58,268 bases of DNA. It comes from Candidatus Falkowbacteria bacterium. GTDB taxonomy: Bacteria; Patescibacteriota; Patescibacteriia; Patescibacteriales; GWE2-39-37. Within the stretch, counting starts at the first letter, position 1, and each line of letters begins with the position of its first letter. The notes beneath the pieces are model-generated. The model saw only the letters and a program-made list of their open reading frames with translations, ran no database searches and was not told where the DNA came from. Below, piece by piece: positions 598 to 35,469 of this stretch. A program made the translations under genes and the position numbers. The stretch covers positions 193,904 through 252,171 of the forward strand of contig JAAXUA010000002.1 in the NCBI GenBank assembly GCA_013336275.1. The letters run 5' to 3'.

Positions 598-615
598 GCT
601 TAAGTTCAAAGAAAA

Positions 616-1599: not shown

Positions 1600-1604
1600 T
1601 CATT

Positions 1605-6518: not shown

Positions 6519-6560
6519 GATATGCCTGCCCGAGATGAGTTTAGTTCGCCGTTCTGAATT

Positions 6561-6588
6561 TTGTCCAAAACGACGTTCGTGCTATAAT
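6561..6588 (+). promoter_or_regulatory. Sigma70-like promoter for hsp20 and the cohesin gene
   Basis: TTGTCC-N16-TATAAT with TGn extended -10, in an AT-rich intergenic gap. Confidence 0.55.
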
Positions 6589-6664
6589 TAATATAATAAT
6601 TTCGTGAAATTAATTTTGTCTAATAAGGCGCGGTCGACAAAGTCCGCCGCACCCAGCAAAATGT

Positions 6665-7132
6665 ATGTCTTTCCTGGATAAATTAAAACGCAAAGTCGAC
6701 GTATTGGAAGAGGGCAAGCTGAAAGAGGTTGAAAATGGCGAAGCAAAAAAGGAAACTCTGAGCAGCGGGACCAGCTACGCCCAGCTTGATGTCGATATAT
6801 ACGAAACGCCTGAGAAGTATGTAATCTTAGGCTCGATCGCCGGAGTCGATATCAAGAACATCGAGCTTTCGGTCGGTGAAGAGAACGACGTCCTGATTAT
6901 CCAAGGGAAGAAGGAGTCGCCGATAGATCAGCTCAAGGCCGGTGAGTCCAAGATCGTGCCACATCATCAGGAATGCCAGTGGGGAGAGTTCTATCGCCAG
7001 ATTATTTTGCCTCAGGAAATAAATCCCGAATTGATCGAGGCTTACGAAGAAAAAGGCGTTCTGGTAATCATTCTTCCGATGCTCAGGCTGCAGCGGGGCA
7101 AGAAGAATATCCAAGTCAGCTTAAAAGCTTGA
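6665..7132 (+). CDS. Hsp20/alpha-crystallin small heat-shock protein
   Basis: DVDIYETPEKYVILGSIAGV, LIIQGKK, ECQWGEFYRQIILP, GVLVIILP; C-terminal IQV (IxI/V) motif. Confidence 0.9.
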   Translation: MSFLDKLKRKVDVLEEGKLKEVENGEAKKETLSSGTSYAQLDVDIYETPEKYVILGSIAGVDIKNIELSVGEENDVLIIQGKKESPIDQLKAGESKIVPHHQECQWGEFYRQIILPQEINPELIEAYEEKGVLVIILPMLRLQRGKKNIQVSLKA

Positions 7133-7149
7133 AATTAGATTGATATATT

Positions 7150-18300: not shown

Positions 18301-21300
18301 GACTAACTTCGCTCAGATGCCTTTCGACATCGCTTTCTATAAATATTATAGAGGGGTTGTCGTTTGGAACGCCGCCGCCTCGACGACGCCTAAATATCGT
18401 ATCCTAAACTCGACCACGAACACGATTGACGCGGTCAATACGGCCGTGCAAGGAGCGACCTCTTCAGTCTGGACCCGCGTCAAGCTGTACAAGGACCCGA
18501 ATGAGATCGAGCTCCTGGCAGCTTTCCAAAGCACGAATATCAATTACGGAGCAGTTTTCTTCAATGGAGCCGCCAATCAATTCTATAGTGCCGGCAATCA
18601 GGCCTGGCTCAATGTCGCCACCAACACCGGTGCCTTCAGCGCGAACGATGCTGCAGTCTCCTTCACCTATACCGCCGGAAATTCGGCACCGAACACGCCG
18701 ACAGCTTTACTGCAGCAGCGCAGCGACGCCAGCACCACGATTGCCAATGGCAATTGGACCAACCAGAATCAAGTCTATGTAGGCGCAAGCGCCATAGATC
18801 CGGATACTAGTGAAGTCATCACGCTCTACACCCAGCTAGTCGCCAATGCTTCCGCTTTTGCCACCAGTACGGCCTTGCCTTCAGGCGCCTGCGTTTGGGG
18901 CACTGCCTATGGCTCATGTGCCTCCAAGATCTGGTTCGTGGCCTCAAGCTCACCTGGTGATTATAGCGTTACGCCTTATTCCAACAAGGTGAATATCACC
19001 GGCTTGCCTGACTCCGCAACCGGCTACAAATGGCAGGTAATCGCATGCGATGATTCTTTGTCGACAACCACGGCTTGTTCCAATTGGGTCGCATTCAACT
19101 CCACTCAACCTAATTTCAAGGTCGATACGACAGCCCCGACGGCGCCTGGCGCTTTGACGATCGCCTCGAAGAACAGCAATAGCGTCACTTTGCGTCTGGG
19201 TGCTACTACGACCGAGTCAAACTTCTCCTCATACCGCATTTATTACAAGGCAGGGGCTTCCGGCGCGACCGAAGCCGATACCTTGCAGAGCGACGCCAAT
19301 CTCGGATTCATAAATTACAACGGCGCGACGACGAGCTTAGTGATCAACCTGGCTTCCACCACGCAATATGTCTTCAATATCTGGGCGTATGATCTGGCCG
19401 GTAACAAGGCGACGGCCACGCCGGAGGTCTCAACTACGACCAGTGTCGGTCCGATTATGGCCCAGACCTCATATATCTTCGAGAATGATGATGGCGCCAA
19501 TGTCAATTCCAATTCTTCGGCCGCAGCGGCTTCGACGAGTTTGGCTAACCTGAATAAGGGAGAGCGTTTCGATGCCCGCATCCAGATTGAGAATCGCGGC
19601 GGCGACGTCGCTAGCAACAAAGTTTATAAACTGCAATTCGAGAACCAGACCGATGCGCCAGGAACTTGGGCTGATGTCTCTAATAATTCCGGCATCGCTT
19701 ATGGTCTGGGCATCTCCGGCAACGATGGCGATGCCGTCACCTCCGCCAAGGCTAGCGCTAACGCCAATGCATGGGTCAATGGAACTTGGCACGAGGGAAC
19801 GAATCTCACCTCAGCCAAGACCTTGGCCAACGGCCAGTATACAGAACTCGTCTTCGCCTTGCGCACCAATAACGCGCTCACTGGCAAGACTTACCGGCTG
19901 CGCCTCTACAACAGTACGGATAATAAAGTTTTGGAAGTTTACAATAATTATCCTGCCGTTTCGATCGTGGCTAGCGAAACAGTCAGGCACTCGAAAGGGA
20001 ACTACCCCAGTCTGCCGACCGGAACGACGGACCTTACCTACTATCTCGACCCCAAAGGCTACGGCGATGTGGCTGCGGATGATAATTCCAACCGTGATCC
20101 GTTGACCGTTACAGCCCAATATCCGATCTTCTACTTCGTGACCAAGAATTCGACCAACACCCAGGCCATTACCGCAACTTGGAACGGCCAGTCATCGATA
20201 TCTTCGGTTGGATCCAACATGTATCTCCAGGTTTATCGTTTCGGTACGACTAATGCCTGGGTGACGGTCGACCTGGAAACGACCTTCTCTGCCAATACGG
20301 ACTTTACGATGACGGCTTCCTTGAATTCCAGACTGTCAGAATATTATGACGGTTCGAACTGGACCTACTGGCGCGTCTATCAAGATGCTGGCACCGAGAC
20401 TCTGCGTACGGATTATTTCAATGCGACTTTCTCGGCTCCGGTTGCCGATACCTGGCAGAAACATTACCGTTGGCGCTCCAATTTCGGCAACGAGACAACG
20501 GCTTTCTGGCTTGAAGCCGAAGATGTGGGAAGTCCGACCGCTTCAACCTCGCTCCAAAAGAACGTAACGACCCGCCTAAGGCTATCGGCGGCCAATACTG
20601 GAGGCGGAGCTGCAAATCAGCAGTACCAGATACAATACGCGACTACGACCGGCAACTGCGCTAGCGACCCTGGCGGCTGGGCGACGATTCCGACCTCGAC
20701 AACCCTAGCCTTCCGCATGTCCACGACCACGACCATCAATAATGGTTCAAGCACCACGCAGCAGCTGGCTAATGCCGAGGGTTACACCTTCGTTCCAGGC
20801 CGCTTAGTCAAGGACCCGTCAAATAAGGCCACGACCACGACGCTTGCCGAATCGAGGTATACGGAAATAGAATTCGCCTTCTTCGCCACCAACAATGCCG
20901 TGGATAACACCACTTATTGCTTCAGGATGACGGACAATGGAACGCCGCTCAATCATTATGACCGCTATGCCGAATTAACCGTCAATCCGAACGCCAACGC
21001 GGCTCCGACTTTCGTAGTCGACCCTTCAGATAACGGCTCAGCTACCAACACGCCGACAAATTTCGGCGGCCAAATCGCCTTTGCTGCCACAGGCGAAGAT
21101 ACGGACAACGATAGCTACTACCTGGCAATCTGTCAGACTAACAGCGTTGCTCCTGGGAACGATGCCCCGCCGACCTGCGGTGGCGGCAGCTGGTGCATTT
21201 CAAGCTTGGCCTCCAGCACGCAGGAGGCGACTTGCAGCTACACGGCCGCCACCTCGAGCGAATCATCGGCTTGGTACGGTTTTGCCTGCGATAAGAAGGC

Positions 21301-22651: not shown

Positions 22652-24277
22652 ATGCCCAAGAATCGCCAATTAATATTGAACGTGATCATGCTGTCCGCCG
22701 CCTTAGTGGCAGTTGTTTGGACTAGCTATGATTATCTATATCCGTTATTCGGGCCAGGCAAGGTCTTTTTCAAGGCGGCAGCGGCAGCGGATGAAGCTTT
22801 GGCAGACAAAACGCCGCCTCAGATCAGCGATATCGCGGTGGCAGACGTTTCGCCGACCTCAACCACCATCACTTGGAAGACCGACAAGGAAGCTGACTCG
22901 CTAGTCAATTTCAATATCAGCCGGGATTACGGCATTACCCGCGATTCGGCCCTGGTCAAGGAACATCGGCTGGTCATCCCGGAGCTGAATCCGTCCCAGC
23001 AATACTATTACCGCATCATCGCCGTTGATAAGAATGGCAACCAGAATATCTCAAATGATTTTGTCTTCACGACCAAAGACCTTGAGACCAAGACGACTAC
23101 GCCAGTGACGCCGCCAGAGACCCAGACGCCCACCGAAACGCCGGAGCAGAATCTCGGCCCGGGCAACGGCGCCGGCGAAGGAGGCGGTTACAAGGATCCG
23201 CCCCAGGACGAGACCCAGGTGGTTAGAGAAACCATGAATTTGCTCGAGCAGCTTGACAGCGAAGAGAGCCTGTCTTTGATCGAGTCGAAAATCCAGCAGG
23301 TGGCCGAGGAAAAAGCCAAACCCCCGGTCATCACCGGCGACTTCGCCAAAGTCGAGGTGGGCACTGATTTCGCCAAGATCACTTGGAAGACCGACAAGGA
23401 ATCGGACTCGATCGTGGCCTTGGCCGCCGAAAGCGAGTACGCCCCGAACGCAGCCAACCCTTATCGCTGGAAAGAGGGCGAACCGAATCAGATGGTGCTG
23501 GTCCACGAAGTCATGGTCAACGGATTGCGCCCGGCCACGACCTATCATTATCAGGTCACTTCCAAGTCGAGCTTGGGCCTTGAAGGCGTCAGTGAAGACA
23601 ACACGTTCAAGACCAAGTCGATCATGCCGGAAATTTTCAATATCACCATCAGCAAAGTCCAGGAGGATTCGGCTACGATCGATTTCAATACTAACGTGCC
23701 CTGTTCTTCGATCGTAGAGTATACCGACTTGAGCACTAATGTCACTAAGCTTGAAGGCAGCACGGCCGTAGTCAATACCCATTCGATCCAGCTGAAGAAC
23801 CTGAAATTCGACAGTTATTATTCAGCTGTCATCAAGGTAGAGAACGAGCAGGGAGAAAAGGTCGTTTCCCAGCCGATCACCTTCACCACCATCAAGGATA
23901 TCCAGCCGCCCGTCATTTCGAAGGTCAACACCGAGTCCACGCTTTACCCCGGCACCGACAACAAGACGCAGACCATTATCAGCTGGCGGACCGACGAAGG
24001 GTCGATGTGCCAATTCTTTTACGGCCAGGGCCTGGCCTCAAGCAAGGACGCCAGCACTTTGGCCAAAGAAGAAGATTACATTACCAATCACGTCCAGGTG
24101 GTGACTGAGTTCCAGCCAGCCACGGTCTATAAATTCTGGATCGAGTGTTATGACAGGACCAAGAATAGGGCGAAATCCGAAGACTATACCATGTTGACGC
24201 CTACACGTGAGCAAAGCATCTTGGATTTGATCATCAAGAATTTCGAAGGCACCTTCGGCTGGCTTAAAAAGAAATAA
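22652..24277 (+). CDS. Membrane-anchored FN3 (purple-acid-phosphatase N-term-like) repeat protein
   Basis: N-terminal TM; repeated ITWKTDKEADS/SDS...H..V..L.P...Y.Y motifs; amphipathic C-terminus SILDLIIKNFEGTFGWLKKK. Confidence 0.8.
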   Translation: MPKNRQLILNVIMLSAALVAVVWTSYDYLYPLFGPGKVFFKAAAAADEALADKTPPQISDIAVADVSPTSTTITWKTDKEADSLVNFNISRDYGITRDSALVKEHRLVIPELNPSQQYYYRIIAVDKNGNQNISNDFVFTTKDLETKTTTPVTPPETQTPTETPEQNLGPGNGAGEGGGYKDPPQDETQVVRETMNLLEQLDSEESLSLIESKIQQVAEEKAKPPVITGDFAKVEVGTDFAKITWKTDKESDSIVALAAESEYAPNAANPYRWKEGEPNQMVLVHEVMVNGLRPATTYHYQVTSKSSLGLEGVSEDNTFKTKSIMPEIFNITISKVQEDSATIDFNTNVPCSSIVEYTDLSTNVTKLEGSTAVVNTHSIQLKNLKFDSYYSAVIKVENEQGEKVVSQPITFTTIKDIQPPVISKVNTESTLYPGTDNKTQTIISWRTDEGSMCQFFYGQGLASSKDASTLAKEEDYITNHVQVVTEFQPATVYKFWIECYDRTKNRAKSEDYTMLTPTREQSILDLIIKNFEGTFGWLKKK

Positions 24278-24281
24278 GAAT

Positions 24282-25610
24282 ATGATCGAACCGCTAATCC
24301 GCATCAAAAACATGAGCGTGATCTATAACAAGGGCAAGGAAAATGAATTCCGTGCCGCTGATAACACGAGCATGGAAATCTACCCGGGCGAGTACATCAT
24401 TTTTTTCGGCCCGTCCGGCTGCGGCAAATCGACCACGCTTTATACTATTTTGGGCGTGCTGCCGCCGACCGAGGGGGTGGTCATGGTCAAAGGCGAAAAC
24501 CCCTACGCCTACACCGCGGAAGAGCTGGTGCATTATCAGACTTCCGTCATTGGCATCATGTACCAAGCCTTTTATCTCATACCGTCTTTGACCATCGCCG
24601 ATAACGTGACCTTGCCGCTGATTTTCAAAGGCGTGCATCCCAGTGTCAGGAAAAAACGCGCCCAGGAGCTTTTGGACCGCTTCGGTGTGGGCAAACACGG
24701 CCATAAGCTGCCCGAAGCCTTGTCCGGCGGCCAAACCCAAAGAGTCTCGGTCGCCCGCGCTTTCGTCAACGACCCGGAAATCCTCCTGGCCGACGAGCCG
24801 GTCGGAAATTTGGACTCGATCTCGGCCGGACAGGTTATGGATACGCTGAATACGATCAACCAGAAAGACAAGAAGACCATCATCCTAGTTACCCATGATG
24901 CCAAATATCTGCCCTACGCGCACCGCGTGATTTATATCAAAGACGGCCGAGTGGTACGTATCGTGCCAAACCCGGAAAAGAAGCAGATCGCCCGCGTGGA
25001 TCAGCAGAAGAACCTGATTACGGAGATGGAGCAGCTGGTCAAGGTTCATCCGTATCTGTCACCGAGCGAGCTTAAGGTGAAGAGCATCATCAATTATCTG
25101 ACTCAAGATTTCACCTTCGAGCAGCTGCAGCGCTTGGAAGATATTTCCAAGCTGATGATCGATGGCAAGATGAATGCGGAGAATTTCAATGCGCTCCTGG
25201 TCAAGGAATTCAAAGACGGCGGCGTCGGGGTCAAGCCGGGGTTGGCCGAGGTCATGACCGAAAAGATCGAGAAGATTCTGGCTCAGTCCAAGGATATCCG
25301 CCGTTATCGCCGGCGCTTGGAACGCAACAATTTTTTCGACACCGATAAGGACCTGATCAATAAGCTGGCCAAGTACATGATGGACGAATACGGCCACGCC
25401 ATTACGGTTATGCAAAAGAAACGCCTCAAGGAAACGGTTTATAACCGCGTAGCTGGACTGAAAAAGATGGATGAATTCTTGGAATCCTTGATGGCGCCGC
25501 TCGACCAAGGCGGTCTCGGCTTCGATAAGGATATGGCCAATCGACTGACCCAATATTTCGAGAAGCTGCTGATACAAGGCTTGGAGACCGAAGAAAAAGG
25601 AGAACATTAG
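24282..25610 (+). CDS. MacB/LolD/FtsE-like ABC ATPase with a ~210-aa C-terminal extension
   Basis: Walker A GPSGCGKST, signature LSGGQTQRV, Walker B LLADEPVGNLD, H-loop VTHD. Confidence 0.9.
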   Translation: MIEPLIRIKNMSVIYNKGKENEFRAADNTSMEIYPGEYIIFFGPSGCGKSTTLYTILGVLPPTEGVVMVKGENPYAYTAEELVHYQTSVIGIMYQAFYLIPSLTIADNVTLPLIFKGVHPSVRKKRAQELLDRFGVGKHGHKLPEALSGGQTQRVSVARAFVNDPEILLADEPVGNLDSISAGQVMDTLNTINQKDKKTIILVTHDAKYLPYAHRVIYIKDGRVVRIVPNPEKKQIARVDQQKNLITEMEQLVKVHPYLSPSELKVKSIINYLTQDFTFEQLQRLEDISKLMIDGKMNAENFNALLVKEFKDGGVGVKPGLAEVMTEKIEKILAQSKDIRRYRRRLERNNFFDTDKDLINKLAKYMMDEYGHAITVMQKKRLKETVYNRVAGLKKMDEFLESLMAPLDQGGLGFDKDMANRLTQYFEKLLIQGLETEEKGEH

Positions 25611-25629
25611 CTTATAGATATCAATATAT

Positions 25630-26823
25630 ATGAGAGTCCAAGACACAGCCCGATTAGCGACGCGCATGTTCAAAACTAGGCCGGCCAGAACCTGGCTGAC
25701 GATTCTTGGCATTGGCGTCGGTATTGCTGCCGTGGTCGTCTTGGTCGGTTTGGGCTACGGTTTGCAGGGAATCATCCTGGAAAAGATCGTTTTCGGCGAG
25801 GCTTTGTTGAGCTTGAATGTCAATGCTCCGTCATCGAAAGCGGTCATACTGGACAAGAAGAGCCTGGAGATGTTCGGGAAATTGGAACATGTCCAGGAGG
25901 TCGAGCCGATGACTAGCTACACTTCCTTGATCAAGTTCGGCGAACTGACGGGCAGCATCTTCGTGCGCGGCGTCAACGCCAATTACTTCAAATATGCCGG
26001 CGTGGTGCCGCTTGAAGGATCGTTGTTCGGCAACGGAGAGGCGAACAAAGTAATCTTGTCGACAGCAGCCTTGAAACTTTTCGAGCTGGAACCCAAAGCT
26101 ATTCTCGGCAAGCGGGTCAATTTCAAGATTTTCGTGCCAGGCGCTAATCCGGACGATGTCCAGGAGGTGCCTTTGGGCAAAGAGTACGAAGTCGCGGGCG
26201 TAATCGATGATGCCTCCTCGATTTATGCCTTTGTCCCGCTATCGGAGCTGACTGCTAAATTTGCGGTCACTTCCTACGAAAGCGCCCGAGTCAAGGTCGA
26301 GAGCAACGAGTTCTTGACTGCGGCCGAAGATGCGATCATCAAGAAGGGTTTCGTGGTGACGGCTTTGTCCAAAACGGTCGAACAAGCCAACAAGATCTTC
26401 AGCGGCATCCAGATCATCTTAGCTATCTTCGGCGGCATCGCTTTGGTCGTGTCGGCTATCGGTATGTTCAACACCATGACCGTCACCCTAATGGAAAGAA
26501 CCAACGAGATCGGTATCATGCGTACCATCGGCGGCTCGCCGACCAATATCAAGGTCATGTTCTTGTCCGAGTCGATCGTCATGGGCTTCTTGGGAGGCGT
26601 GGTCGGTATCGCCATCGGCGTCTCCGGCGGATTGTCTTTGAATTTCCTTTTGAACTCGATCGCCACTCGTATGGGCGGTACGGCCATCACCTTATTCCGC
26701 TTTCCTGTTCCTTTTTTACTGATGATTGCCGCCTTCGGCGCCGTCATGGGTTTTTTGACCGGTGTTTATCCGGCCAGGCGCGCCGCTTCCTTGAGTCCGC
26801 TAGACGCCATCAGATACAAATAA
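25630..26823 (+). CDS. MacB/FtsX-family ABC permease
   Basis: RTWLTILGIGVGIAAVV; extracytoplasmic domain; IGMFNTMTVTLMERTNEIGIMRTIGG; C-terminal YPARRAASLSPLDAIRY. Confidence 0.92.
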   Translation: MRVQDTARLATRMFKTRPARTWLTILGIGVGIAAVVVLVGLGYGLQGIILEKIVFGEALLSLNVNAPSSKAVILDKKSLEMFGKLEHVQEVEPMTSYTSLIKFGELTGSIFVRGVNANYFKYAGVVPLEGSLFGNGEANKVILSTAALKLFELEPKAILGKRVNFKIFVPGANPDDVQEVPLGKEYEVAGVIDDASSIYAFVPLSELTAKFAVTSYESARVKVESNEFLTAAEDAIIKKGFVVTALSKTVEQANKIFSGIQIILAIFGGIALVVSAIGMFNTMTVTLMERTNEIGIMRTIGGSPTNIKVMFLSESIVMGFLGGVVGIAIGVSGGLSLNFLLNSIATRMGGTAITLFRFPVPFLLMIAAFGAVMGFLTGVYPARRAASLSPLDAIRYK

Positions 26824-27453
26824 ATGATGCTCGAGAATAAATACGCCAGAGTCGCCGCCTATGTCGTCTTGGTAATTCTTAACCTTATGTCGTTTCTGGC
26901 GTTGTACCAGGTTTCACAAGACGATCGCTTGCCACCGGCCGAGCAGGAAGTCGTAACAGAAGAGGGATCAGCCGGACAGGGGGTTATTTCTCGGATCAGC
27001 CGGCAGTTTTTCGGATTCGGCCAACCATCAGATGAAAAAACCGGTGCTGGTGCGGCGCAATTATCCACAGTGCCGAACGAGCCGAAATTTTCCCGGACTT
27101 CGTTCTTCTTTCAAGCCCCCTATATCGGCAGCCTGGCCATCCCGGAGTCCTGGGAAGGGAAATACGCCACCAAAGAAACAGGACAGTCGATCGATTTTTT
27201 ATACGTCTTGCCTGGAGAGCCAGGCATCCCGATCTTCACGGTCGATTTATTAACGAAAAAAGATTGGGAAAAATTCAAGGCCGCCAATCAAGGCGCTCAA
27301 GTCATTAAGGACTTGCCGGAACACGTCTTCGTGGCCAGGATTCGCAACGCAACCACGACCGACCAGGACAGAGTTAAAGAGTATATAAGGATGACCGGTG
27401 AGGCCAAAGCATCTTGGAATAGCTTTCGGAGCCATCTTCAACCCAAAAATTAA
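26824..27453 (+). CDS. Hypothetical membrane-anchored extracytoplasmic protein
   Basis: ATG directly after the permease stop codon; one N-terminal TM; no recognised domain. Confidence 0.65.
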   Translation: MMLENKYARVAAYVVLVILNLMSFLALYQVSQDDRLPPAEQEVVTEEGSAGQGVISRISRQFFGFGQPSDEKTGAGAAQLSTVPNEPKFSRTSFFFQAPYIGSLAIPESWEGKYATKETGQSIDFLYVLPGEPGIPIFTVDLLTKKDWEKFKAANQGAQVIKDLPEHVFVARIRNATTTDQDRVKEYIRMTGEAKASWNSFRSHLQPKN

Positions 27454-27478: not shown

Positions 27479-27508
27479 TTGTCACTAAAACGTAAAATGT
27501 GGTAAAAT
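27479..27508 (+). promoter_or_regulatory. Sigma70-like promoter for the 577-aa gene
   Basis: TTGTCA-N18-TAAAAT with TG extension. Confidence 0.55.
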
Positions 27509-27585: not shown

Positions 27586-29319
27586 ATGTCGCAAGCAATT
27601 AAAAAACAACTCAAACGATCGTATCCCGTCGTGGCCGGTTTTTTGATTCTGAATATCGCCATCTCAGCCGTGTTTTTCAACATGCGCTTCAATCTTTTAG
27701 AAATCAGCTGGCTTAACGGTGCTCAGGCCCAGGATTCGGCCACCAGCTCTGTTACCGTCAAGAACGCGCCGCCGGCCTTCACGGTCAATGCAGCCGAAAA
27801 CCCGACGTCTTCTTCAACTTCGCCGGTCAATGTCGGCGCTAATATCAGCTTTACCGGCACGGCCGATGACCCGGAAAATAACAGTTATTACTTGATTGTT
27901 TGCGATAGTACGGCTACGGCCACTCCTGGCGCCGGTGGCGCCGCCCCGACCTGCAGTGTCGGCAACACCATCAACTGCGTTTCCGGCTTGACTGGCGATA
28001 CGGCTCAGGCAAGCTGCACCTACGGCAATGTGGCTGATCCTGGAGCTGAGACCAAGAACTGGGCTGCTTTTGTCTGCGATAATCACGCCACCCAGGCCCA
28101 GTGTACGACTGTCGGCAATTCCGGCTCAGGTGATTCCGGCTCTCCGTACTATGTCAACCATGCCCCTACCTTTACGGCAGTGGCCACGACTGATGACAAC
28201 AAGGATCCTGGAGGCATATTTACCATCCAGGGCAACGTAGGCGATACAGATGCCCAGGGCGGAGTCGATACCTTGACCATGAGCGTCTGCAGTTCGAATA
28301 GCTGGTCCACCACCACCGGTTGTGCTGCCACCACATTCTGCACCGGCACCACGACCGGCGCTACGGTTTCCTGCACCTATACCAGCCCGGTTCCGATGGC
28401 TCATGGAACCTCTTCATATTATGCCTTTGTCAAAGATTGGCATCAGTTAGCCTCTGCCGCCAACTCGAGAACTAGCGTAATCACTACCAACAATGTCGCT
28501 CCTTCAGTGAGCAATATCGTCCTGAACGGCGGTTCACTCATTACCTTATTAAATAAGGGTGCCGGGCCAAAAACAGTAACCGCATCCTCATCTTCGGTTA
28601 CGGACAATAACGGTTGTGCCGACTTGGTTGACGCCACCAGCACTATTTATTATTCGGCAGTCGCCGGCGGAGCCGACTGCACGGCCGACGACAATAATTG
28701 TTATAAGTCGGCAGCAGCTGCTTGCAACGTTTCTGACTGTTCAGGCGGTGTCGATACCGTGGCCACAGTAGTATGCAGCGCTGGCTTGGAATATCATGCC
28801 ATCCCAACTGACATTTCCACGGGAAATCCGTACACTTCAAACGGCTGGATTGCTTCGATTTTTCCCTATGATGAAACCCTCTCAGCCAGTCTTGCCACAA
28901 GCAGTCCGGTCGACGTGTTTACTAATATGGCTCTAGACGTCTCTGAGGCGACAATTCCTTATGGCATCTTACAGGCTGGACAGAATACTGCCGGTTACAA
29001 CGCAACCACCACAGTCATAAATTTTGGCAATTGTCCTTTGGCTAGCGATATAGATGGAACTTGGATGTCTAACGGCGGCAATCATATAGGGGAAAATAAC
29101 CAGAAATTTGATCTCTCAACAGCCGTTTACGGGTCGCTTACTTATAATCTATCTTCCACGACGCCACAAACCTTGAACCTTTCTGCTCGACCAACCAGCG
29201 CGGCTAACGTGACCAGGCCAGTTTATTGGGGTATCAATATCCCGGCTTTGCTGCCCTCGGGTGATTATTACGGTACGAATACATTTACAGCAGGACTTTA
29301 TTCCGGCGGAGTTTGGTAA
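27586..29319 (+). CDS. Secreted Cys-rich Ig-like protein with WxL/TasA-like C-terminal domain; candidate major fibre or surface-layer subunit
   Basis: Signal peptide ending AQA; 17 Cys; C-terminus VYWGINIP...GDYYGTNTFTA; paralog of the giant protein C-terminus; monocistronic. Confidence 0.75.
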   Translation: MSQAIKKQLKRSYPVVAGFLILNIAISAVFFNMRFNLLEISWLNGAQAQDSATSSVTVKNAPPAFTVNAAENPTSSSTSPVNVGANISFTGTADDPENNSYYLIVCDSTATATPGAGGAAPTCSVGNTINCVSGLTGDTAQASCTYGNVADPGAETKNWAAFVCDNHATQAQCTTVGNSGSGDSGSPYYVNHAPTFTAVATTDDNKDPGGIFTIQGNVGDTDAQGGVDTLTMSVCSSNSWSTTTGCAATTFCTGTTTGATVSCTYTSPVPMAHGTSSYYAFVKDWHQLASAANSRTSVITTNNVAPSVSNIVLNGGSLITLLNKGAGPKTVTASSSSVTDNNGCADLVDATSTIYYSAVAGGADCTADDNNCYKSAAAACNVSDCSGGVDTVATVVCSAGLEYHAIPTDISTGNPYTSNGWIASIFPYDETLSASLATSSPVDVFTNMALDVSEATIPYGILQAGQNTAGYNATTTVINFGNCPLASDIDGTWMSNGGNHIGENNQKFDLSTAVYGSLTYNLSSTTPQTLNLSARPTSAANVTRPVYWGINIPALLPSGDYYGTNTFTAGLYSGGVW

Positions 29320-29340
29320 TAAATACAGTGAAAATTATAT

Positions 29341-29368
29341 AAAGAAGCGCCTTAAGGGCGCTTCTTTT
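29341..29368 (+). terminator. Rho-independent (bidirectional) terminator
   Basis: AAAGAAGCGCC-ttaag-GGCGCTTCTTTT. Confidence 0.85.
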
Positions 29369-29434
29369 GTGTAAAACTTTAACCTTAGCCTAAATATAGC
29401 TCATAATATGCCCATAATTCAGGGGTTTTCTGCC

Positions 29435-29464
29435 TTGAAAAATTGTGTCGTATTATAGTATAAT
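29435..29464 (+). promoter_or_regulatory. Sigma70-like promoter
   Basis: TTGAAA-N18-TATAAT upstream of 29528. Confidence 0.45.
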
Positions 29465-29527
29465 ATAAAGGAATAATAATATATGTTTGAAGGATATATT
29501 TTTTTGTATTGGCCGAATTTTTAGATT

Positions 29528-30145
29528 ATGACCAAAATCCAAATTGCAGTCTATGGCGCAATAGTTTTTTCGTTCTTTTATTATCTGATCAGATTCACTT
29601 TCGACCTGCTGTTGCGCGGTTTTGCCCCGGTTGTTTCATCGCGCCCCTGGGTAATCGAGACCTTGATTGATGAGCTGAAGAAGAATAAGATCAAGGAAAA
29701 TCCGGTAATCTATTCCTTGAGTTGCGGCAAGTCCGGTTTTTTGTATTTTGTCGGCAAGGCATTCCCGAATGCCACCTTGATCGGAGTTGAAAACGACTTT
29801 CTGCTTTATCTGCTTGAGCGCATCCAGGTATGGATCAGGCTGCTTGATATCAAGGTCCTGTATGAGAAGCGGCTTTATAGCCTCGATGTCAGCAAGGCGA
29901 ATGTGATCTACTGTTATCTCGGCATAGAATATTTGAGAGAGCTGCCGAAGAAATTCAAGTTCGAGTGCAAGCCGGGTACCTTGATCATCAGTGTCGGTTT
30001 TCCGATTCCTAACTTGCCAGAAAAAAAAGTTTTAGAGATTTCCCAGCAGCAAGGCCGCTTGGATTTCCTGTCCAAGCGCAAGATTTTTTCTTCGAAAAAG
30101 AAGGAGGGTAAACGCCCTCATCTGATATATGTTTATGAAATCTAA
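29528..30145 (+). CDS. FAM173/aKMT-like class I SAM methyltransferase homolog with degenerate motif I
   Basis: N-terminal TM; APVVSSRP; YSLSCGKSG in place of DLGxGDG; LIGVE; ANVIYCYL; KPGTLIISVGFPIP. Confidence 0.65.
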   Translation: MTKIQIAVYGAIVFSFFYYLIRFTFDLLLRGFAPVVSSRPWVIETLIDELKKNKIKENPVIYSLSCGKSGFLYFVGKAFPNATLIGVENDFLLYLLERIQVWIRLLDIKVLYEKRLYSLDVSKANVIYCYLGIEYLRELPKKFKFECKPGTLIISVGFPIPNLPEKKVLEISQQQGRLDFLSKRKIFSSKKKEGKRPHLIYVYEI

Positions 30146-30167
30146 TCACCGTTAGGCAATTATAATA

Positions 30168-31256
30168 ATGAAAAGGGGAGCAATAACTAATCTTTTCGGT
30201 TTTTTCACGGTTGCGCTGTGCCTTTTGGGGTACGCTAAGAGCGCGTCTGCCGGTTTCGGTATCTCACCGCCATATCTTAAGAATCAGCAGCTAGTGCCTG
30301 GTTCGAGGTTCGAGCAGCAGATCACTTTGCTGCGTTCGTCGGCTGACGAGGACCTGAAGGCAACTATCAAGGTCAACGCGCCGGAAATCGCCCCTTGGAT
30401 TACTATCGATAAGGGCGAGGAATTCGTCTTGCCCAAGGGCGAGGTGCAGGTGCCGATGATCGTAACGGTTAACGTGCCCAAGAGCGCCGAATTAGGCAAC
30501 TACAAAGGCAGCATAAATATCAAGGTCGCATCGGCCAATGCTGCTACGGCCGGCGTTGCCATCGCCCTCGGTGCCCGCGTAGATATCGATCTGACTCTTA
30601 CCAACGTCGCCAATAGCGACTTCGTGGTCAAGACAGCCGCCATCCCTGATTTTGAGATGCTTGAGTGGCCGTGGAATTGGAAGATCTTCAGTACCTTCCT
30701 TCATCGCGCCACAGTCGTCTTGAATATCGAGAATATCGGCAACGTCGAAACCGCACCATCAAAGGTCGCTTTGGAGATTCTCGACATCTCCAAGACCAAG
30801 ACTTTGGAGAATCTGATGGACAAGTCGATTGATAAGATACCTTCATTCTCAACCAAGGAAGTTTCCGCCCATTTCCCGACCAAGCTAGGCGTCGGCCAGT
30901 ATTGGGGCAAGGTCAAAGTCTATAAGGGCAACGATATAGTTAATGCCTATGAAATCGCCTTTACCATAGCTAAGCCGGGTGAATTGCCTAATGGCGGATT
31001 AAGCCTCGGTTTGTTGCCTTGGCTGCTCCTCGCCGGCTATATCGTAATCGCCATCATCGTTTTGTCTTTCCTGATCAAGATCAAGGTTTGGCGTTTGACC
31101 GGCAAAGGTCTGGCTCTGCTGCTCGCCCAGTTCTTCGCTCCGATCCGCCCGGTCGCCAGAGCGGTATCCAAATCGACCAACAGCATGAAGACCGGTTTCT
31201 GGCGCTGGGTTGGCACCAAGGTTTCCCAGCATAATGACCGCGATCGTCGCGACTAA
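30168..31256 (+). CDS. DUF916/WxLIP-like two-Ig-domain protein with C-terminal TM
   Basis: Signal peptide ending ASA; GFGISPPY; IAPWITI...VPMIVTVNVP...LGNYKGSI; IENIGNVETAP; TM LLPWLLLAGYIVIAIIVLSFLI. Confidence 0.7.
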   Translation: MKRGAITNLFGFFTVALCLLGYAKSASAGFGISPPYLKNQQLVPGSRFEQQITLLRSSADEDLKATIKVNAPEIAPWITIDKGEEFVLPKGEVQVPMIVTVNVPKSAELGNYKGSINIKVASANAATAGVAIALGARVDIDLTLTNVANSDFVVKTAAIPDFEMLEWPWNWKIFSTFLHRATVVLNIENIGNVETAPSKVALEILDISKTKTLENLMDKSIDKIPSFSTKEVSAHFPTKLGVGQYWGKVKVYKGNDIVNAYEIAFTIAKPGELPNGGLSLGLLPWLLLAGYIVIAIIVLSFLIKIKVWRLTGKGLALLLAQFFAPIRPVARAVSKSTNSMKTGFWRWVGTKVSQHNDRDRRD

Positions 31257-31351
31257 GAAAATCAAGCGGTTGCGTCACGCAGCAGCACCTCTCTTATATA
31301 TAGTCGGCGCGTGCCTGCTGGCCGGCCGTTCCTCATCTAGCTTTTTGCATT

Positions 31352-32602
31352 ATGCGTTTTCGCCCGTTATCCATATTATTCTTGATTTTAGCCATCGGAT
31401 TATTGCCATACCATAAAATCGCCAACGCCAGCACGGCTACCACCTCGGTAACCGTCCTCTTGGTTTGCGGTGATGGCTTGAAGGATGGCGGTGAGACTTG
31501 CGATACTAATGATTTCGGCGGTTTGACTTGCGGCAACTTCGGTTTCGATGACGGCGAACTGACCTGTTCCAACACTATTACGCCCGGCGATTGTTCGACG
31601 ATCCTGACGCCATTCTGCAGCACTTGCGGCAACGGGATCAAAGAAGGCTTCGAGCAGTGCGATGGCACCGATGTCGGTTCGAGCACCTGCCAGATGTTCG
31701 GTTATAACACCGGCAGCCTGTCTTGCGCTTCCAACTGCAATCTGGTCATTACCGGGTGTGCCAGCGTCGGTTTGACCGAACCGGGCAACGCTGGTTCCCA
31801 GGGCGGCGGTTCGGGCGGCGGCGGAGGCACTGGCGGCGGCGGATTTCCAGCCGGCTTCATTCCTGGCTCCGAAGTCGCACCCAAAGCGACCAAGGTCGTA
31901 GTCAACGGCAAAGCCTATCCTGGATCCGACGTCAACATTCTGATTGACGGCAAGACTATCGGTATCGTTCGGGCCGATCCTAAAGCGGATTTCTATTTCG
32001 AAAGCGAAACCATAACTCCTGGCGTAATCGGTTTGGGGCTTTGGGCAGAAGACAGCAAGGGACTGAAGTCGGCCCTGCAAACCCTGACTTTCCGCGTCGC
32101 TTCCGGCGCGGTCACTACCGTTTCCGGAGCCTATCTCTCGCCAAGCATCGATATCGACAAGCCGACAGTCGGACAAGGGGAGGAGCTGAGGGTGTTCGGT
32201 CAGACCGTTCCGACGAGCGATGTCTCGGTCGTATTCCATTCAGCAACTGAGGTGGTCAAACAGACTCAGAGTTCGAACAAAGGCGAATGGACGCTCAATT
32301 TCAATACGGCACCGCTGGAGTCCGAGGCTTATCACATCGTCAAGGCATCATTCGAGCAGAAAGGGACTAACAATATTATCAAGAGCGGTTTTTCCAAAGC
32401 GGTAAGCTTCTATGTCGGCAAGGGCGGCTTCGCCCAGCCTTGCCCCAAGGCTGACCTGAACAAGGACAAGAAGACTAATTTGGTCGACTTCTCGATTTTG
32501 CTTTACTATTGGGGCACTGATAATACTTGTGCCGACCAGAACCGCAACAAGAAGGTCGACCTTATCGATTTCAGTATCATGCTATATAATTGGACAGGGT
32601 AA
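31352..32602 (+). CDS. Secreted protein: Cys-rich (myxobacterial CGNG/CGDG-type) repeats, Gly linker, Ig-like domains, C-terminal dockerin
   Basis: CGDGLKDGGETCD and CGNGIKEGFEQCDG; GGGSGGGGGTGGGG; ADLNKDKKTNLVDFSILLYYWG...ADQNRNKKVDLIDFSIMLYNWTG. Confidence 0.82.
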   Translation: MRFRPLSILFLILAIGLLPYHKIANASTATTSVTVLLVCGDGLKDGGETCDTNDFGGLTCGNFGFDDGELTCSNTITPGDCSTILTPFCSTCGNGIKEGFEQCDGTDVGSSTCQMFGYNTGSLSCASNCNLVITGCASVGLTEPGNAGSQGGGSGGGGGTGGGGFPAGFIPGSEVAPKATKVVVNGKAYPGSDVNILIDGKTIGIVRADPKADFYFESETITPGVIGLGLWAEDSKGLKSALQTLTFRVASGAVTTVSGAYLSPSIDIDKPTVGQGEELRVFGQTVPTSDVSVVFHSATEVVKQTQSSNKGEWTLNFNTAPLESEAYHIVKASFEQKGTNNIIKSGFSKAVSFYVGKGGFAQPCPKADLNKDKKTNLVDFSILLYYWGTDNTCADQNRNKKVDLIDFSIMLYNWTG

Positions 32603-32634
32603 CACAATTTACAATTATCAATTTACAACTCTCA

Positions 32635-33657
32635 ATGAATAATGTGATAAAAACTCTCATCTTTGCCTTTTTGCTGGTCGTGCCGTCATTTGCTGCTCGT
32701 GCTGCTACCTTGTATTTCACGCCTTCTAGCGGAACTTATGGCTATGGCGATGTTTTCGCTGTCGACGTCAAAATCGATATAGATAGCGGTGACGAGTGCA
32801 TCAATACCGTCCAGGGTGTTATCGGTTTCGATAAGGATTATCTTGAAATGGTCGATTTCAGCGGTGGCGAATCGATCCTCTCCTTATGGATCGACCTGCC
32901 CAAGACTGGCGACATGCCGAATATCAATCATGAAAAGATAGTCAAGTTCACCGGCGGCATTCCTGGTGGTTACTGCGGTAAGATTCCGGGTGATCCGGGC
33001 GAGAGCAATATCATCGGCAAAATCATCTTTAAGGTCAATAACTTCAAGGCGGACGCCGTGCCCAAGCCGACGGCTAAGGTTTTTTTCGTTGACAGCACCC
33101 AGGTGCTTCTGAATGACGGTCTGGGCACCGAGGCCAAGGTTGTTTTGAAGGAGGCCGAATTCACTGTCACTGAAAAGCAGGCGGAGTCGAGGAAGGAGTG
33201 GGACACCTTGAAGAATGACGATGTCATCCCGCCCGAACCTTTCGTTATAGAAATTCAGCGCAGCCAGTCGATGTATAATGGGAAAAATTATCTGATATTC
33301 AACACTACGGACAAGCAGTCCGGAGTAGACCATTACGAAGTCCTAGAGGCGAGATTTGATGATAGCGCCGACCGATCTTCCTGGTTCGGCTGGTTTGAAA
33401 GCAAGAAGGCTGACCCTGAATGGAAGCTCGCCAGCATCCCCTACATATTGGAGGACCAGTCCTTGTCAAGCAACATCAAGGTGAAGGCCATAGACAAGGC
33501 CGGCAACGAGCGGATTGAAGAATATTTCATCAAGGAATCAAAACCGGCGCCCAAATCATCTATGAGGTTCGCGCCTTTTGTGGTATTATTTATCATAGTG
33601 GCGCTTGCGGCCTGGCTCATTTTTCGGAAAGCCAGGTCTCGCAACCGCATCAAGTAA
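32635..33657 (+). CDS. Cohesin-domain protein with Ig-like domain and C-terminal TM (ATG 32635 preferred over TTG 32590)
   Basis: MNNVIKTLIFAFLL signal peptide ending ARA; LYFTPSSGTYGYGDVFAVDVKID...INTVQGVIGFD cohesin pattern; TDKQSGVDHYEV; terminal TM. Confidence 0.8.
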   Translation: MNNVIKTLIFAFLLVVPSFAARAATLYFTPSSGTYGYGDVFAVDVKIDIDSGDECINTVQGVIGFDKDYLEMVDFSGGESILSLWIDLPKTGDMPNINHEKIVKFTGGIPGGYCGKIPGDPGESNIIGKIIFKVNNFKADAVPKPTAKVFFVDSTQVLLNDGLGTEAKVVLKEAEFTVTEKQAESRKEWDTLKNDDVIPPEPFVIEIQRSQSMYNGKNYLIFNTTDKQSGVDHYEVLEARFDDSADRSSWFGWFESKKADPEWKLASIPYILEDQSLSSNIKVKAIDKAGNERIEEYFIKESKPAPKSSMRFAPFVVLFIIVALAAWLIFRKARSRNRIK

Positions 33658-33675: not shown

Positions 33676-35469
33676 ATGAATACTCATAAAAAAAATAGGT
33701 TTCTGGCCTTGTCAGCGCTGCTGGTTTTCGCGCTGTCCAGCTTTGGCCTCGTTTCGCCTGCACTTGCAGCCGGCGGATCGCTATATATCGCTCCGGCCAA
33801 CGGCACTTACGTCGTCGGTGACAAGATTACGGTCACGGTTAAGGCCTATACCGGTGGCAACACCATAAACGCAGCCGAGGGCGTCCTGAATTTCGATAGG
33901 AATTTTCTGGAAGTTTCCGGCATCTCTAAGAGCGGGTCTATTTTTTCCATGTGGCCGGCTGAGCCTAGCTATTCCAACGGGGCCGGCTCTGTCAGTTTCG
34001 GTGGCGGATTGACTCCGCCAGGTTTCTCGGGGCAGTCTGGTAAGATCATTTCGGTGACTTTCAAAGCCAAAGCGGTCGGATCGACTCAAGTCAGATTTTC
34101 CTCGGGCGCCATCCTGGCCAATGACGGCAAGGGTTCCAATGTGCTCGAGACCATGGGCAGCGCCACTTTTAATATTTCAGCCAAGGATGGCGTCGTGCCG
34201 GATTCCGCCACGAAGGAGACAGCTGGCACCGGCAAACCATTGGTAGTCCAAGACCAGAAAACGGCAGTCATAACTGACGAGTACAACAAGCCGAACATAA
34301 CCTCGGCAACCCATCCGGACCAGAATACCTGGTATGCTAAGAATAATGTCGAGTTTGCTTGGGAAATGCCCGCAGGCGTGACCGGAGTCAGTTATGATTT
34401 CAATAAGGAGCTGAACTTCGATCCAAAATCAGAATCATCAGGGCTGGTTTCTTCGAAAGCTTATGATAATGTCGAAAACGGCATCTGGTATTTGCATCTC
34501 AAACTATATGACGGCAAGAAATGGGGGACTGTCGATCATTACCGCGTAATGCTTGATAATGTGCGCCCTAAGCCGTTCACGATCAGGGTAGAGCAGACTG
34601 ACGCCGGCAATTGGCCGAAACTGTATTTCAAGACCAAAGACGATATCTCCGGCGTCCAGTCGTACGAAATCTACGTTAACAGCTTGGAAGAGAATAAATA
34701 TAGCTTGACCGAGGATGAATCGCAGGAAAATCTGAACATCGAACTGTCACAGCTCGGTTACGGCGATCATACGGCACTGATCAAGGTGATAGACAAAGCC
34801 GGCAACGAGACGGTTGAAACCGTCGAATTCACCATCCAGCCGATCGAGACTCCGGTCATCAAGAATTATGCCAGAGAAATCAAGCCATCGGATCAGTTTT
34901 TCATCAACGGTACGGCGCTGGCGAATAGTCTGGTCAATATTTACATCCAGGACAGCGCGGGCAGGATTGCGGCCAAGGTCGTCCATGGCGATAAGAACGG
35001 CAATTGGTTTTATCTGAATGATTCCGGTCTGAGTAACGGACGCTATTTCGCTTGGGCTGAGGGTGAAAACATCAATGGCTTAAAGAGCGTGCCCACCCAG
35101 AAGGTCAGCTTTCTGGTGACGCCGCCGGTTTTCGCCACATTTGGATCATTCGTCATCAATTACTTCACGGTCATTACCAGCCTTCTGTTCATGATCATCC
35201 TGATCGTCGCTTTGGTCATGCTGTTGAGCGGCAAGCTGCGAAAAAAACTGAAGAAGGAGACGGTTGAAGTCGAGGATGTGCTGCATCAGAACATGTGCGG
35301 ACTGAAGCAGATGGTAGACGATGAAGTTTCACGGATCGACCAGTTCAAGCGCATCACCGAAGTCAGGAAAGAGGGCGCCAAGATGAAGCAGGCACTGAGG
35401 GAATCGATTGACACGACCGAGATGAAAATCCTGAAAGAGATAAAGGACGTAGAGGAAATCTTGAAATAA
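33676..35469 (+). CDS. Cohesin-domain protein with Ig-like domains, TM and cytoplasmic coiled coil
   Basis: LYIAPANGTYVVGDKITVTV...INAAEGVLNFD...WPAEPSYSN; ITSATHPDQNTWY; full-length paralog of 7150-8982. Confidence 0.85.
   Translation: MNTHKKNRFLALSALLVFALSSFGLVSPALAAGGSLYIAPANGTYVVGDKITVTVKAYTGGNTINAAEGVLNFDRNFLEVSGISKSGSIFSMWPAEPSYSNGAGSVSFGGGLTPPGFSGQSGKIISVTFKAKAVGSTQVRFSSGAILANDGKGSNVLETMGSATFNISAKDGVVPDSATKETAGTGKPLVVQDQKTAVITDEYNKPNITSATHPDQNTWYAKNNVEFAWEMPAGVTGVSYDFNKELNFDPKSESSGLVSSKAYDNVENGIWYLHLKLYDGKKWGTVDHYRVMLDNVRPKPFTIRVEQTDAGNWPKLYFKTKDDISGVQSYEIYVNSLEENKYSLTEDESQENLNIELSQLGYGDHTALIKVIDKAGNETVETVEFTIQPIETPVIKNYAREIKPSDQFFINGTALANSLVNIYIQDSAGRIAAKVVHGDKNGNWFYLNDSGLSNGRYFAWAEGENINGLKSVPTQKVSFLVTPPVFATFGSFVINYFTVITSLLFMIILIVALVMLLSGKLRKKLKKETVEVEDVLHQNMCGLKQMVDDEVSRIDQFKRITEVRKEGAKMKQALRESIDTTEMKILKEIKDVEEILK

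Follow-up and report, generated by a model that had tools for sequence, protein, structure and literature searches.

Patescibacteria are ultra-small bacteria without an outer membrane; they account for a large part of bacterial diversity and are found attached to other cells, and how they hold on to those cells is, to our knowledge, largely unknown. A locus of Candidatus Falkowbacteria raises this question in a specific form: why should two secreted proteins that are otherwise unrelated begin, immediately behind their signal-cleavage sites, with nearly the same short strand? The stretch of DNA analysed here (the window) is 58,268 nucleotides long and covers positions 193904-252171 of contig JAAXUA010000002.1 (C1), in a 1.2-Mb genome of 10 contigs that is 96.7% complete. 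In its first 35 kb, genes lie essentially only on the + strand, as do all features below unless stated, and its proteins have their closest relatives in records with the label Candidatus Falkowbacteria, Parcubacteria or Patescibacteria. The proteins in question are referred to as famA (the 577-amino acid (aa) open reading frame (ORF), 27586..29319), famB (the 416-aa dockerin ORF, 31352..32602) and the giant (the 4410-aa ORF, 9323..22555), and the C-terminal domain of famA as the CTD. With a rough probability of 60%, the common strand is the donor strand of a chaperone-assisted surface fibre built by donor-strand exchange (DSE), in which the giant forms the tip, famA the shaft and famB a terminator that is held through a dockerin-cohesin contact.

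The strand behind the signal-cleavage site

The proposed donor strand of famA, DSATSSVTVK, lies at 27733..27762, and its counterpart in famB, STATTSVTVLLV, at 31430..31465. The local reading of famA is NGAQA-Q-DSATSSVTV-KNAPPAF, the AxA site preceding the Q, and that of famB is KIANA-STATTSVTV-LLVCGDG, with the strand directly behind the site. A sequence-only reading of the window had drawn attention to this likeness, and its coordinates are exact: 27733-27759 encodes D50-S-A-T-S-S-V-T-V58 of famA and 31430-31456 encodes S27-T-A-T-T-S-V-T-V35 of famB. Its claim that the two proteins diverge completely beyond the strand also holds, as BLASTP of famA against famB shows no other common region. 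The two coding stretches differ at most wobble positions, and therefore no recent gene conversion has taken place; the likeness is kept at the level of the protein.

Conservation in homologues had been named as a test of the strand, and across about 120 orthologues of each family (more than 100 full-length relatives were available per family) the similarity does not vanish, it sharpens into a common profile. The famA logo over 118 orthologues reads D90%-T-A99-[S/T]-T83-[T/S]-V98-[T/E]-V99-[K/R/Q]-N100-A-P-P100, and the famB logo over 117 orthologues reads [E/D]-[F/Y]-[L/A]-[P/T/S]-T98-[S/T]-V88-[E/T]-[V/I]-[L/I]-[V/L]-x-C100-G100. Both families thus hold the consensus [D/E]-x-[A/L]-x-T-[S/T]-V-[T/E]-V just after the AxA cleavage site, and in both the strand is among the best-conserved segments. 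One face of the strand is near-invariant (D, A, T, V, V and N in famA; E/D, L/A, T, V, V/I and V/L in famB), with polar, variable residues in between in both families; donor strands of ElrD and of chaperone-usher pilins have the same two-faced pattern (10.64898/2026.10.17.759780). The pattern TT.V.V.N..P behind an AxA site extends to more remote famA-like proteins of 551-634 aa. A mutual-information analysis of strand position 57 (T/E) against the remaining famA positions was uninformative, being dominated by one clade that has also lost a disulfide; in pairs read by eye, E in famA is always matched by E in famB, a pattern confounded by phylogeny.

When the famA strand profile is slid along the 413 offsets of the famB profile, the best offset is residue 27 (score 15.1, z 4.7) and the next-best scores 9.3; an unrelated control family peaks at 10.6 (z 4.0), so a nine-residue match is by itself only moderately strong. 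The argument is carried by the position and conservation of the strand rather than by the short profile match alone. A relaxed motif, [ALV]-x-[ST]-[ST]-[VIL]-[TE]-[VI], occurs nine times in the 479,472 residues of all ORFs of at least 120 aa in the genome, and behind a signal peptide it is carried by famA and famB only.

The idea would fail if each strand folded into its own adjacent domain. AlphaFold2 monomer models of full-length famA and famB, with strands read by DSSP, fold neither strand in this way. In famA, residues 43-54 have a predicted local distance difference test score (pLDDT) below 50 and no strand is assigned over 50-60, in a model with a mean pLDDT of 90.7; in famB, residues 24-31 fall below 50 and no strand is assigned over 27-38, with a mean of 84.7. 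Both strands are hence unpaired in the models yet conserved, as expected for an interaction element. The famA N-terminus SVTV-K-NAPPAF (strand-N-A-P-P-x-F) furthermore echoes two internal junctions of the same protein, YYV-NHAPTF and SVITT-NNVAPSV (SVITTNNVAPSV), whose strands close the preceding domain in the AlphaFold2 model; the N-terminal strand therefore looks like an orphan closing strand.

The strand could still be the first, edge strand of an own domain in each protein, with a likeness that arose by convergence of S/T/V-rich strands past signal peptides. Mature N-termini rich in Ser, Thr and Ala are common, a 327-aa DUF916-like protein of the window reads DSAVTVTPS past its cleavage site, apparently, by position, within its own first domain, and AlphaFold2 can miss edge strands. 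This explanation is considered improbable, as the models, confident elsewhere, leave both strands unpaired, the homology of the giant to famA starts just past the strand, and the motif is found in only these two secreted proteins of the genome; in addition, the profile, including its leading acidic residue, is kept in about 120 orthologues per family although the domains that follow are unrelated.

A further alternative arises from the leader of famA (27586..27729), which consists of KKQIKRSxP, a transmembrane (TM) helix, FNxNF, a variable spacer and AxA, with P14, F31, N32 and A48 at least 90% conserved. The helix is placed at residues 2-31 in the AlphaFold2 model. The leader differs from an ordinary signal peptide in its near-invariant FN(L/F)N(F/L), followed by a variable spacer of 15-25 residues, and its motifs, judged from sequence, suggest a dedicated partner, perhaps the adjoining ABC machine. 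This machine is a MacB/LolCDE-type ABC ATPase (442 aa) with an FtsX-type permease (397 aa) at 24282..26823, recognized by Pfam and NCBIfam; such a pair is also annotated just upstream of famA in the related loci L001 (3425-6018) and L003/L004 (L003 4138-9740). The strand might then be a sorting or handling tag that is read by the transporter, by the 362-aa protein encoded between famA and famB, or by a dedicated peptidase, and the neighbouring transporter genes and the leader motifs, KKQIKRSxP and FNxNF, foreign to ordinary signal peptides, speak for it. Little probability is given to this reading, since the giant of the same locus is without the strand, the signal peptide of famB is ordinary, and residues that are buried and exposed in turn are the mark of a β-strand in a sheet, unlike known sorting motifs.

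If the donor-strand reading is true, AxA followed by D-T-A-[ST]-T-[ST]-V-[TE]-V would be a short testable signature by which shaft and terminator subunits could be annotated in metagenomes.

A proposed acceptor module, anchor and fibre

A donor strand requires a recipient, and the candidate is found at the end of famA itself. Past the strand, the AlphaFold2 model as read by DSSP has three Cys-rich immunoglobulin (Ig)-like domains (residues 64-191, 195-301 and 307-401; 27775..28788), the second and third each preceded by a strand and then an N-x-A-P-type junction (NHAPTF and NNVAPSV). Downstream of these stands a β-rich domain of roughly 150 residues, the CTD (residues 402-577; 28789..29316), which is the proposed strand-accepting module and the source of profile A4. 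An invariant strand of the CTD, NATTTV[I/V]N[F/Y]GN (28996-29022, residues 471-479), is the second-best match to the donor-strand profile within famA, at 13.3.

The giant, with five fn3 stretches and a variable payload of about 3890 aa, is the proposed acceptor-only tip adhesin. Its C-terminal 515 aa are of the famA type: residues 3892-4405 are 41% identical to famA 60-571 (E 3e-99), and the module (20996..22552) comprises the three Cys-rich Ig-like domains and the C-terminal acceptor domain. The alignment starts exactly past the strand, N3892 of the giant being aligned with N60 of famA. The sequence-only reading had noted ELTV in the giant at the equivalent internal position, and the junction does read YAELTV-NPNA-NAAPTF over residues 3883-3897; the E-L-T-V itself (residues 3884-3887, 20972..20983, junction YAELTVNPNANAAPTF) occupies the famA-strand position and is continuous with the preceding domain. 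A large upstream ORF ends in the same famA-type module in 12 other loci.

The wider distribution of the CTD is consistent with this role. Searched among 1.84 billion proteins, the CTD-only profile (A4) matched 1555 representative proteins at E<=1e-3, and in the best 150 of these, which were inspected, the CTD is at the extreme C-terminus in 147. These 150 carriers range from 134 to 7063 aa in length, 25 of them being at least 2000 aa; the strand-plus-NxxP motif is present among them only in proteins of 551-634 aa and in none of at least 2000 aa. A domain that is terminal on such highly varied proteins shows the pattern of an invariant attachment module with variable payloads. If the proposed reading is true, the attachment fibre would be modular: a single invariant C-terminal socket would carry hundreds of different adhesins, many of giant size.

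Several further arrangements are seen among the carriers. In P0434, a donor-like strand, an Ig domain and the CTD precede a C-terminal payload of about 340 residues, a layout that, going by its sequence, could be that of an adhesin sitting inside the fibre; CTD-strand-NAPP fusions are absent from the three proteins with a non-terminal CTD. A motif (K/Q)-I-N-I-[Y/F]-P-G past the signal peptide is common to giants with the famA-type module (P0376, P0390, P0394, P0397, P0399, P0412 and P0430), and the giant of the window has it in the form SRLNIFPG (9323-9500). Six CTD-ended proteins of about 600-770 aa (P0419, P0433, P0472, P0473, P0477 and P0480) carry an N-terminal W-I-F-S-G-W-P-Q-I-W..PP.PPE in place of the TxVxV strand.

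The second strand-bearing protein, famB, is without the acceptor module and is the proposed donor-only terminator and anchor adaptor. Its model consists of a Cys-rich domain, a Gly-rich linker, two Ig/FN3-like domains and a dockerin. The Cys-rich domain (31466..31759) holds CGDG repeats with invariant Cys columns and is modelled at pLDDT 84-94 for the most part, with 69 at residues 71-80. The tandem Ig/FN3-like domains (31883..32419) match Big_6 weakly, and Foldseek relates them to the Bap C region, SiiE and tandem Ig/FN3 proteins. The dockerin (32450..32581) reaches 21.4 bits against PF00404, for which the cut-off is 22.9; most famB orthologues match PF00404, and the family profile matches solved type I dockerins (E 8e-4), which are the only solved relatives found by sequence.

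The next two genes encode potential partners for this dockerin. The 597-aa protein (33676..35469), the proposed membrane socket, has a cohesin, a Big_13 domain and a TM helix; its cohesin matches PF00963 at 33814-34131 with 40.9 bits (cut-off 24.1), and the protein is 52% identical to its L001 orthologue, itself PF00963-positive at E 7e-10. The 355-aa protein (32590..33657) is its paralogue and likewise ends in a TM helix; it begins with a cohesin-like domain, which aligns with the PF00963-positive domain of the L001 orthologue at E 1e-16. No match to sortase (PF04203) was found in the genome.

The order proposed by the sequence-only reading, from membrane through cohesin, famB and repeated famA to a giant tip, is supported by independent lines, within which strand-into-groove docking, the role of the chaperone, polymerisation of famA with itself and dockerin-cohesin pairing are what we infer. 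The giant has the famA module minus the free strand, as do the upstream ORFs of 12 other loci; famB has a dockerin and no acceptor, and is followed by two membrane cohesin proteins; and a membrane-tethered protein with a distant relationship to DUF916/DUF3324 is encoded between famA and famB. Finally, two preprints of 2026 show by experiment that such parts build donor-strand pili without an outer membrane: the Elr/WxL pilus of Enterococcus faecalis (Sleutel et al., bioRxiv 10.64898/2026.10.17.759780), and the Pam pilus of Ca. Mycosynbacter amalyticus and other bacteria of the Candidate Phyla Radiation (CPR) (Troman et al., PMC13278184).

Assembly would proceed in five steps. All parts would be exported by Sec and cut by signal peptidase at AxA, which would free D-T-A-S-T-T-V-T-V. 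The membrane-tethered 362-aa protein would lend a strand and so hold the CTD of newly exported subunits. The giant, having a CTD and no free strand, could only accept, and would start the fibre as its distal adhesin. The famA strand would then displace the chaperone strand in the CTD of the giant, and more famA would be added at the base, each subunit plugging into the CTD of the previous one. With a strand and no CTD, famB would stop growth, and its dockerin would bind the 355- and/or the 597-aa cohesin, thereby fixing the fibre to the membrane.

The same parts might also dock without forming a polymer, giving a single-copy chain of giant, one famA adaptor, famB and cohesin that would amount to a tethered giant adhesin. 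Contacts between famA subunits are a matter of inference, ElrC combines donor and acceptor and does not polymerise in vitro (10.64898/2026.10.17.759780), and a 4410-aa giant alone could span a long distance. Such a chain, the main rival of the fibre, is nevertheless unlikely, as famA has both the donor strand and the giant-type acceptor module, so self-addition is the simplest outcome. Furthermore, famA has its own promoter-like site (27479..27508; TTGTCA-18-TAAAAT with TG, a consensus match only) and, just 3' of its stop, a terminator-like GC-rich hairpin with an 11-pair stem (29341..29367, no strand assigned); this resembles many major pilin genes and is weak evidence for such a role. The downstream genes have a promoter-like site as well (29435..29464; TTGAAA-18-TATAAT, 11/12). 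A Falkowbacteria locus, L023 (5462-9170), encodes tandem famA paralogues of 596 and 584 aa with the strands QATTTVFV and VATTTVSV. Tandem paralogues of this kind are found in pilus operons with major and minor pilins, which also argues against the single-copy chain.

Beyond the control score given above, a number of observations weigh against the donor-strand fibre. The AxA site of famA stands 15-25 residues past the TM helix, and cleavage behind so unusual a leader is therefore likely but not certain. The CTD is modelled confidently in the AlphaFold2 monomer. A Foldseek search with the full-length famA model returns generic tandem Ig/FN3 arrays, and no pilus or pilin structure is described among the 50 matches listed; the famA profile found no solved structure by sequence, and the CTD matches no solved pilin. 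P0391 carries two tandem CTDs with no strand between them. The WxL family PF13731 has no match at E<=10 in the genome, nor in the CTD of famA or the giant, and hhalign gives a probability of 0.2% between the CTD alignment and mature ElrD (the translation of the construct printed in the Elr preprint).

The Pam pilus adds a last such point: in PamA and PamB the donated element is an internal linker that joins the N- and C-terminal domains (PMC13278184), whereas the strand at issue in famA is N-terminal. An internal linker of famA, for example that between its third Ig-like domain and the CTD (residues 402-420, HAIPTD..), might thus be what is donated, and the N-terminal strand might partner the cohesin or fn3 proteins; in favour of this, the HAxPTD segment before the CTD is conserved. 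It is very improbable all the same, because the linker is confidently placed in the monomer model (pLDDT 94-97), the terminator-like famB copies the N-terminal strand and not the linker, and the published terminators PamR and ElrB both use an N-terminal strand.

The chaperone candidate and the neighbouring genes

The 362-aa protein (30168..31256), the proposed membrane-tethered chaperone, has a signal peptide, two β-domains and a C-terminal TM helix, the hydrophobic stretch LLPWLLLAGYIVIAIIVLSFLI. It passes no Pfam threshold and has no match to PF06030 or PF11797; weak E-set, TcfC and WxLIP_HBD matches are seen. Its family can be linked to DUF916 through the window's 327-aa DUF916-like paralogue (BLASTP E 4e-11 for family members, hhalign 89.5%), and PF11797 (DUF3324) has weak matches in 23 of 116 family members, with a best E of 0.0025. 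The link to PF06030 is only transitive, running from the 362-aa family to the 327-aa protein, from there to the 576-aa paralogue (E 5e-28) and from this to PF06030, of which (DUF916/WxLIP_PGBD) the 576-aa protein passes the cut-off at 32.7 bits. The best-conserved stretch of the family, GVAIALGARVDIDLTLT (30552..30602; V130, L134, G135, A136 and R137 invariant), lies roughly between the two domains and is a candidate chaperone donor strand by analogy with residues 139-153 of ElrE.

Three tandem TM-anchored DUF916 (WxLIP)-like paralogues are encoded at the start of the window (1..3335), with PF06030 scores of 32.7 (over the cut-off), 19.4 and 15.7 bits. Their TM helices are C-terminal, the third also has LytR_C, and no pilin-like gene directly adjoins them; possible clients are other subunits or the upstream 3446-aa protein. 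DSAVTVTPS on the 327-aa paralogue was considered as a third copy of the strand motif and judged a coincidence, since its position makes it appear part of that protein's own first domain.

A second dockerin-cohesin set, made up of a dockerin protein (618 aa) and a TM-cohesin protein (610 aa) with an Hsp20 gene between the two, lies upstream of the giant (4662..8982). The dockerin of the 618-aa protein scores 37.3 bits. Both proteins have paralogues in the famB region: over its C-terminal half the 618-aa protein shares 38% identity with famB 177-416, and a full-length alignment of the 610-aa with the 597-aa protein gives 29%. The 618-aa protein is without the TxVxV strand. It does share S-x-L-[S/A]-x-V-S-D-[K/R]-[L/I]-S past the signal peptide (4662-4800) with a secreted 337-aa ORF just upstream of the window (C1:192141), which may be another common N-terminal element.

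The remaining genes of the cassette lie between the giant and famB. A 541-aa membrane-anchored fn3-repeat protein (22652..24277; Pfam fn3 and Pur_ac_phosph_N) stands between the giant and the ABC genes, and an orthologue is at the same place in 17 loci. In the ABC ATPase that follows, about 200 aa extend the C-terminus, and the pair comes without an adaptor or outer-membrane channel; the Falkowbacteria loci L003/L004 hold two ABC pairs. A small 209-aa membrane protein (26824..27453) upstream of famA matches no family and has weak orthologues in many loci. Downstream of famA, a 205-aa methyltransferase-like protein (29528..30145) anchored by an N-terminal TM helix matches NCBIfam NF041081, which covers protein-lysine N-methyltransferases, weakly (E 8e-7, below the cut-off); its orthologues stand beside famA in at least seven loci (L009, L010, L012, L017, L020, L028 and L029), and it could, as far as this family match goes, modify a fibre component.

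The full order is giant, fn3 protein, ABC ATPase, permease, small membrane protein, famA, 362-aa type, famB, cohesin, cohesin, and it recurs in related loci in whole or in part. The core from famA to the second cohesin is kept in those related loci that are long enough to show it. Records that keep the order are labelled Falkowbacteria, Parcubacteria or Lloydbacteria, so the cassette is conserved across the sampled lineages; several other labels look wrong. Nine records (L010, L012, L014, L016, L019, L024, L026, L028 and L031) are titled 'uncultured Gammaproteobacteria bacterium' despite their Patescibacteria cassette and are probably mislabelled third-party metagenome-assembled genomes. Directly upstream of the ABC-famA cassette, the Falkowbacteria contigs L003 (1926-3947) and L004 (1569-3947) carry a bAvd-like gene (annotated in L004 only), an RVT_1 reverse transcriptase and a 317-aa ORF, a set that looks like a diversity-generating retroelement.

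Comparison with known fibres and anchors

The Elr/WxL pilus is a donor-strand pilus shown experimentally to form without an usher. ElrE is a chaperone anchored by a TM helix, of the DUF916/DUF3324 type, with its donor strand at 139-153 between the domains; ElrA is the tip, with a C-terminal WxL domain and no strand, and ElrB, which has a strand and LPxTG but lacks an acceptor, is the terminator. The system is reported as confined to Bacillota, on Pfam thresholds applied to RefSeq proteomes, and is defined by PF13731 on a pilin or adhesin at its gathering threshold (at least 12 bits inside a locus) together with one chaperone carrying both PF06030 and PF11797; a C-terminal TM helix is present in 96.7% of WxL chaperones (10.64898/2026.10.17.759780). 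By these definitions the cassette was rejected as a WxL system, as it lacks PF13731, a chaperone with both Pfam modules and any sequence relation of the CTD to ElrD. The 362-aa protein does have the C-terminal TM helix of WxL chaperones, and a tip composed of a variable payload and an invariant C-terminal acceptor, without a donor strand, agrees by analogy, with a different module. The Elr donor strand of pilin and terminator follows [S/T]8-x-[G/A]10-x-[V/I]12-x-F14 (10.64898/2026.10.17.759780), whereas famA and famB share [A/L]-x-T-x-V-x-V without the Phe14 at the last pocket position. The window differs further in the three additional Cys-rich Ig-like domains of famA, in the dockerin that takes the place of LPxTG at the end of famB (the genome being without sortase), in the ABC transporter and fn3 protein of the conserved neighbourhood, and in its host, one of the Patescibacteria as opposed to Bacillota.

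The Pam pilus, likewise a DSE fibre without an usher, is found in the same superphylum, its pilins being mainly in Saccharimonadia and Microgenomatia; the window's cassette is seen in Falkowbacteria, Parcubacteria and Lloydbacteria. PamC/D are PapD-like chaperones with a C-terminal TM helix, PamT is an acceptor-only tip, and the terminator PamR has an N-terminal β-strand, two FnIII-like domains and a TM helix (PMC13278184). The architecture of the 362-aa protein (signal peptide, two β-domains, TM helix) is compatible with that of PamC/D, and famB, like PamR, has an N-terminal strand and two Ig/FN3-like domains, to which a Cys-rich domain is added; PamR is anchored by its own TM helix and famB by a dockerin. 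Pam pilins have paired cysteines, and famA is Cys-rich. Their fold, a nine-strand β-sandwich N-terminal domain, a donated linker strand and a truncated Ig-like CTD (PMC13278184), sets PamA/PamB apart from famA, which consists of a strand, three Ig-like domains and the CTD. The main text of the Pam paper makes no mention of dockerin or cohesin (PMC13278184), and no paper was found in the searchable literature that joins dockerin/cohesin with donor-strand pili or CPR pili.

In chaperone-usher pili (Pap/Fim, Caf1 and Csu), an N-terminal extension with alternating small and hydrophobic residues completes the fold of the neighbouring subunit, and an acceptor-only tip, a donor-only terminator and a two-domain β-sandwich chaperone are present as in the proposed fibre. 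The window differs in having no outer membrane and no usher, a chaperone tethered to the membrane, and subunits that are multi-domain and Cys-rich; in Pfam and NCBIfam scans, no usher-like or PapD_N family matched among the locus proteins, nor was a sequence relation to PapD seen. In TasA, archaeal bundling pili, threads and cannulae, cleavage of the signal peptide is reported to free an N-terminal strand that enters the next subunit, again in organisms without an outer membrane; as reported, these chaperone-free fibres have single-domain subunits, no set of tip and terminator, and no DUF916-like chaperone in the operon. Cellulosomes resemble the window in their type I dockerin (PF00404) with EF-hand-like repeat, which is C-terminal in famB, and a neighbouring PF00963 cohesin. 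The window is without glycoside hydrolases or a scaffoldin, its cohesins are on single-pass membrane proteins, and the proposed cargo is a fibre terminator.

A broader conclusion is put forward tentatively, at somewhat less than even odds: that the cassette encodes a sortase-less and usher-less DSE pilus of Parcubacteria-type Patescibacteria; that the famB dockerin in the membrane cohesins forms a non-covalent, possibly Ca2+-dependent and exchangeable anchor; that the CTD is a new fold family mounting diverse adhesins of up to about 7000 aa; and that the MacB-type ABC machine may aid assembly or release. If true, chaperone-assisted DSE would extend beyond Bacillota (Elr/WxL) and Saccharimonadia (Pam) to another large branch of the CPR, and cohesin-dockerin pairs would gain a function outside cellulosomes, as a pilus anchor. 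The proposed roles map one-to-one onto those of Elr and Pam, with the giant as tip, famA as shaft or at least adaptor, famB as terminator and the 362-aa protein as chaperone, and dockerin-cohesin would stand where LPxTG and sortase anchor the Elr pilus or a TM helix anchors PamR. The cassette would work like the Elr and Pam systems yet is distinct from both in its pilin domains, its branch of the phylum and its anchor.

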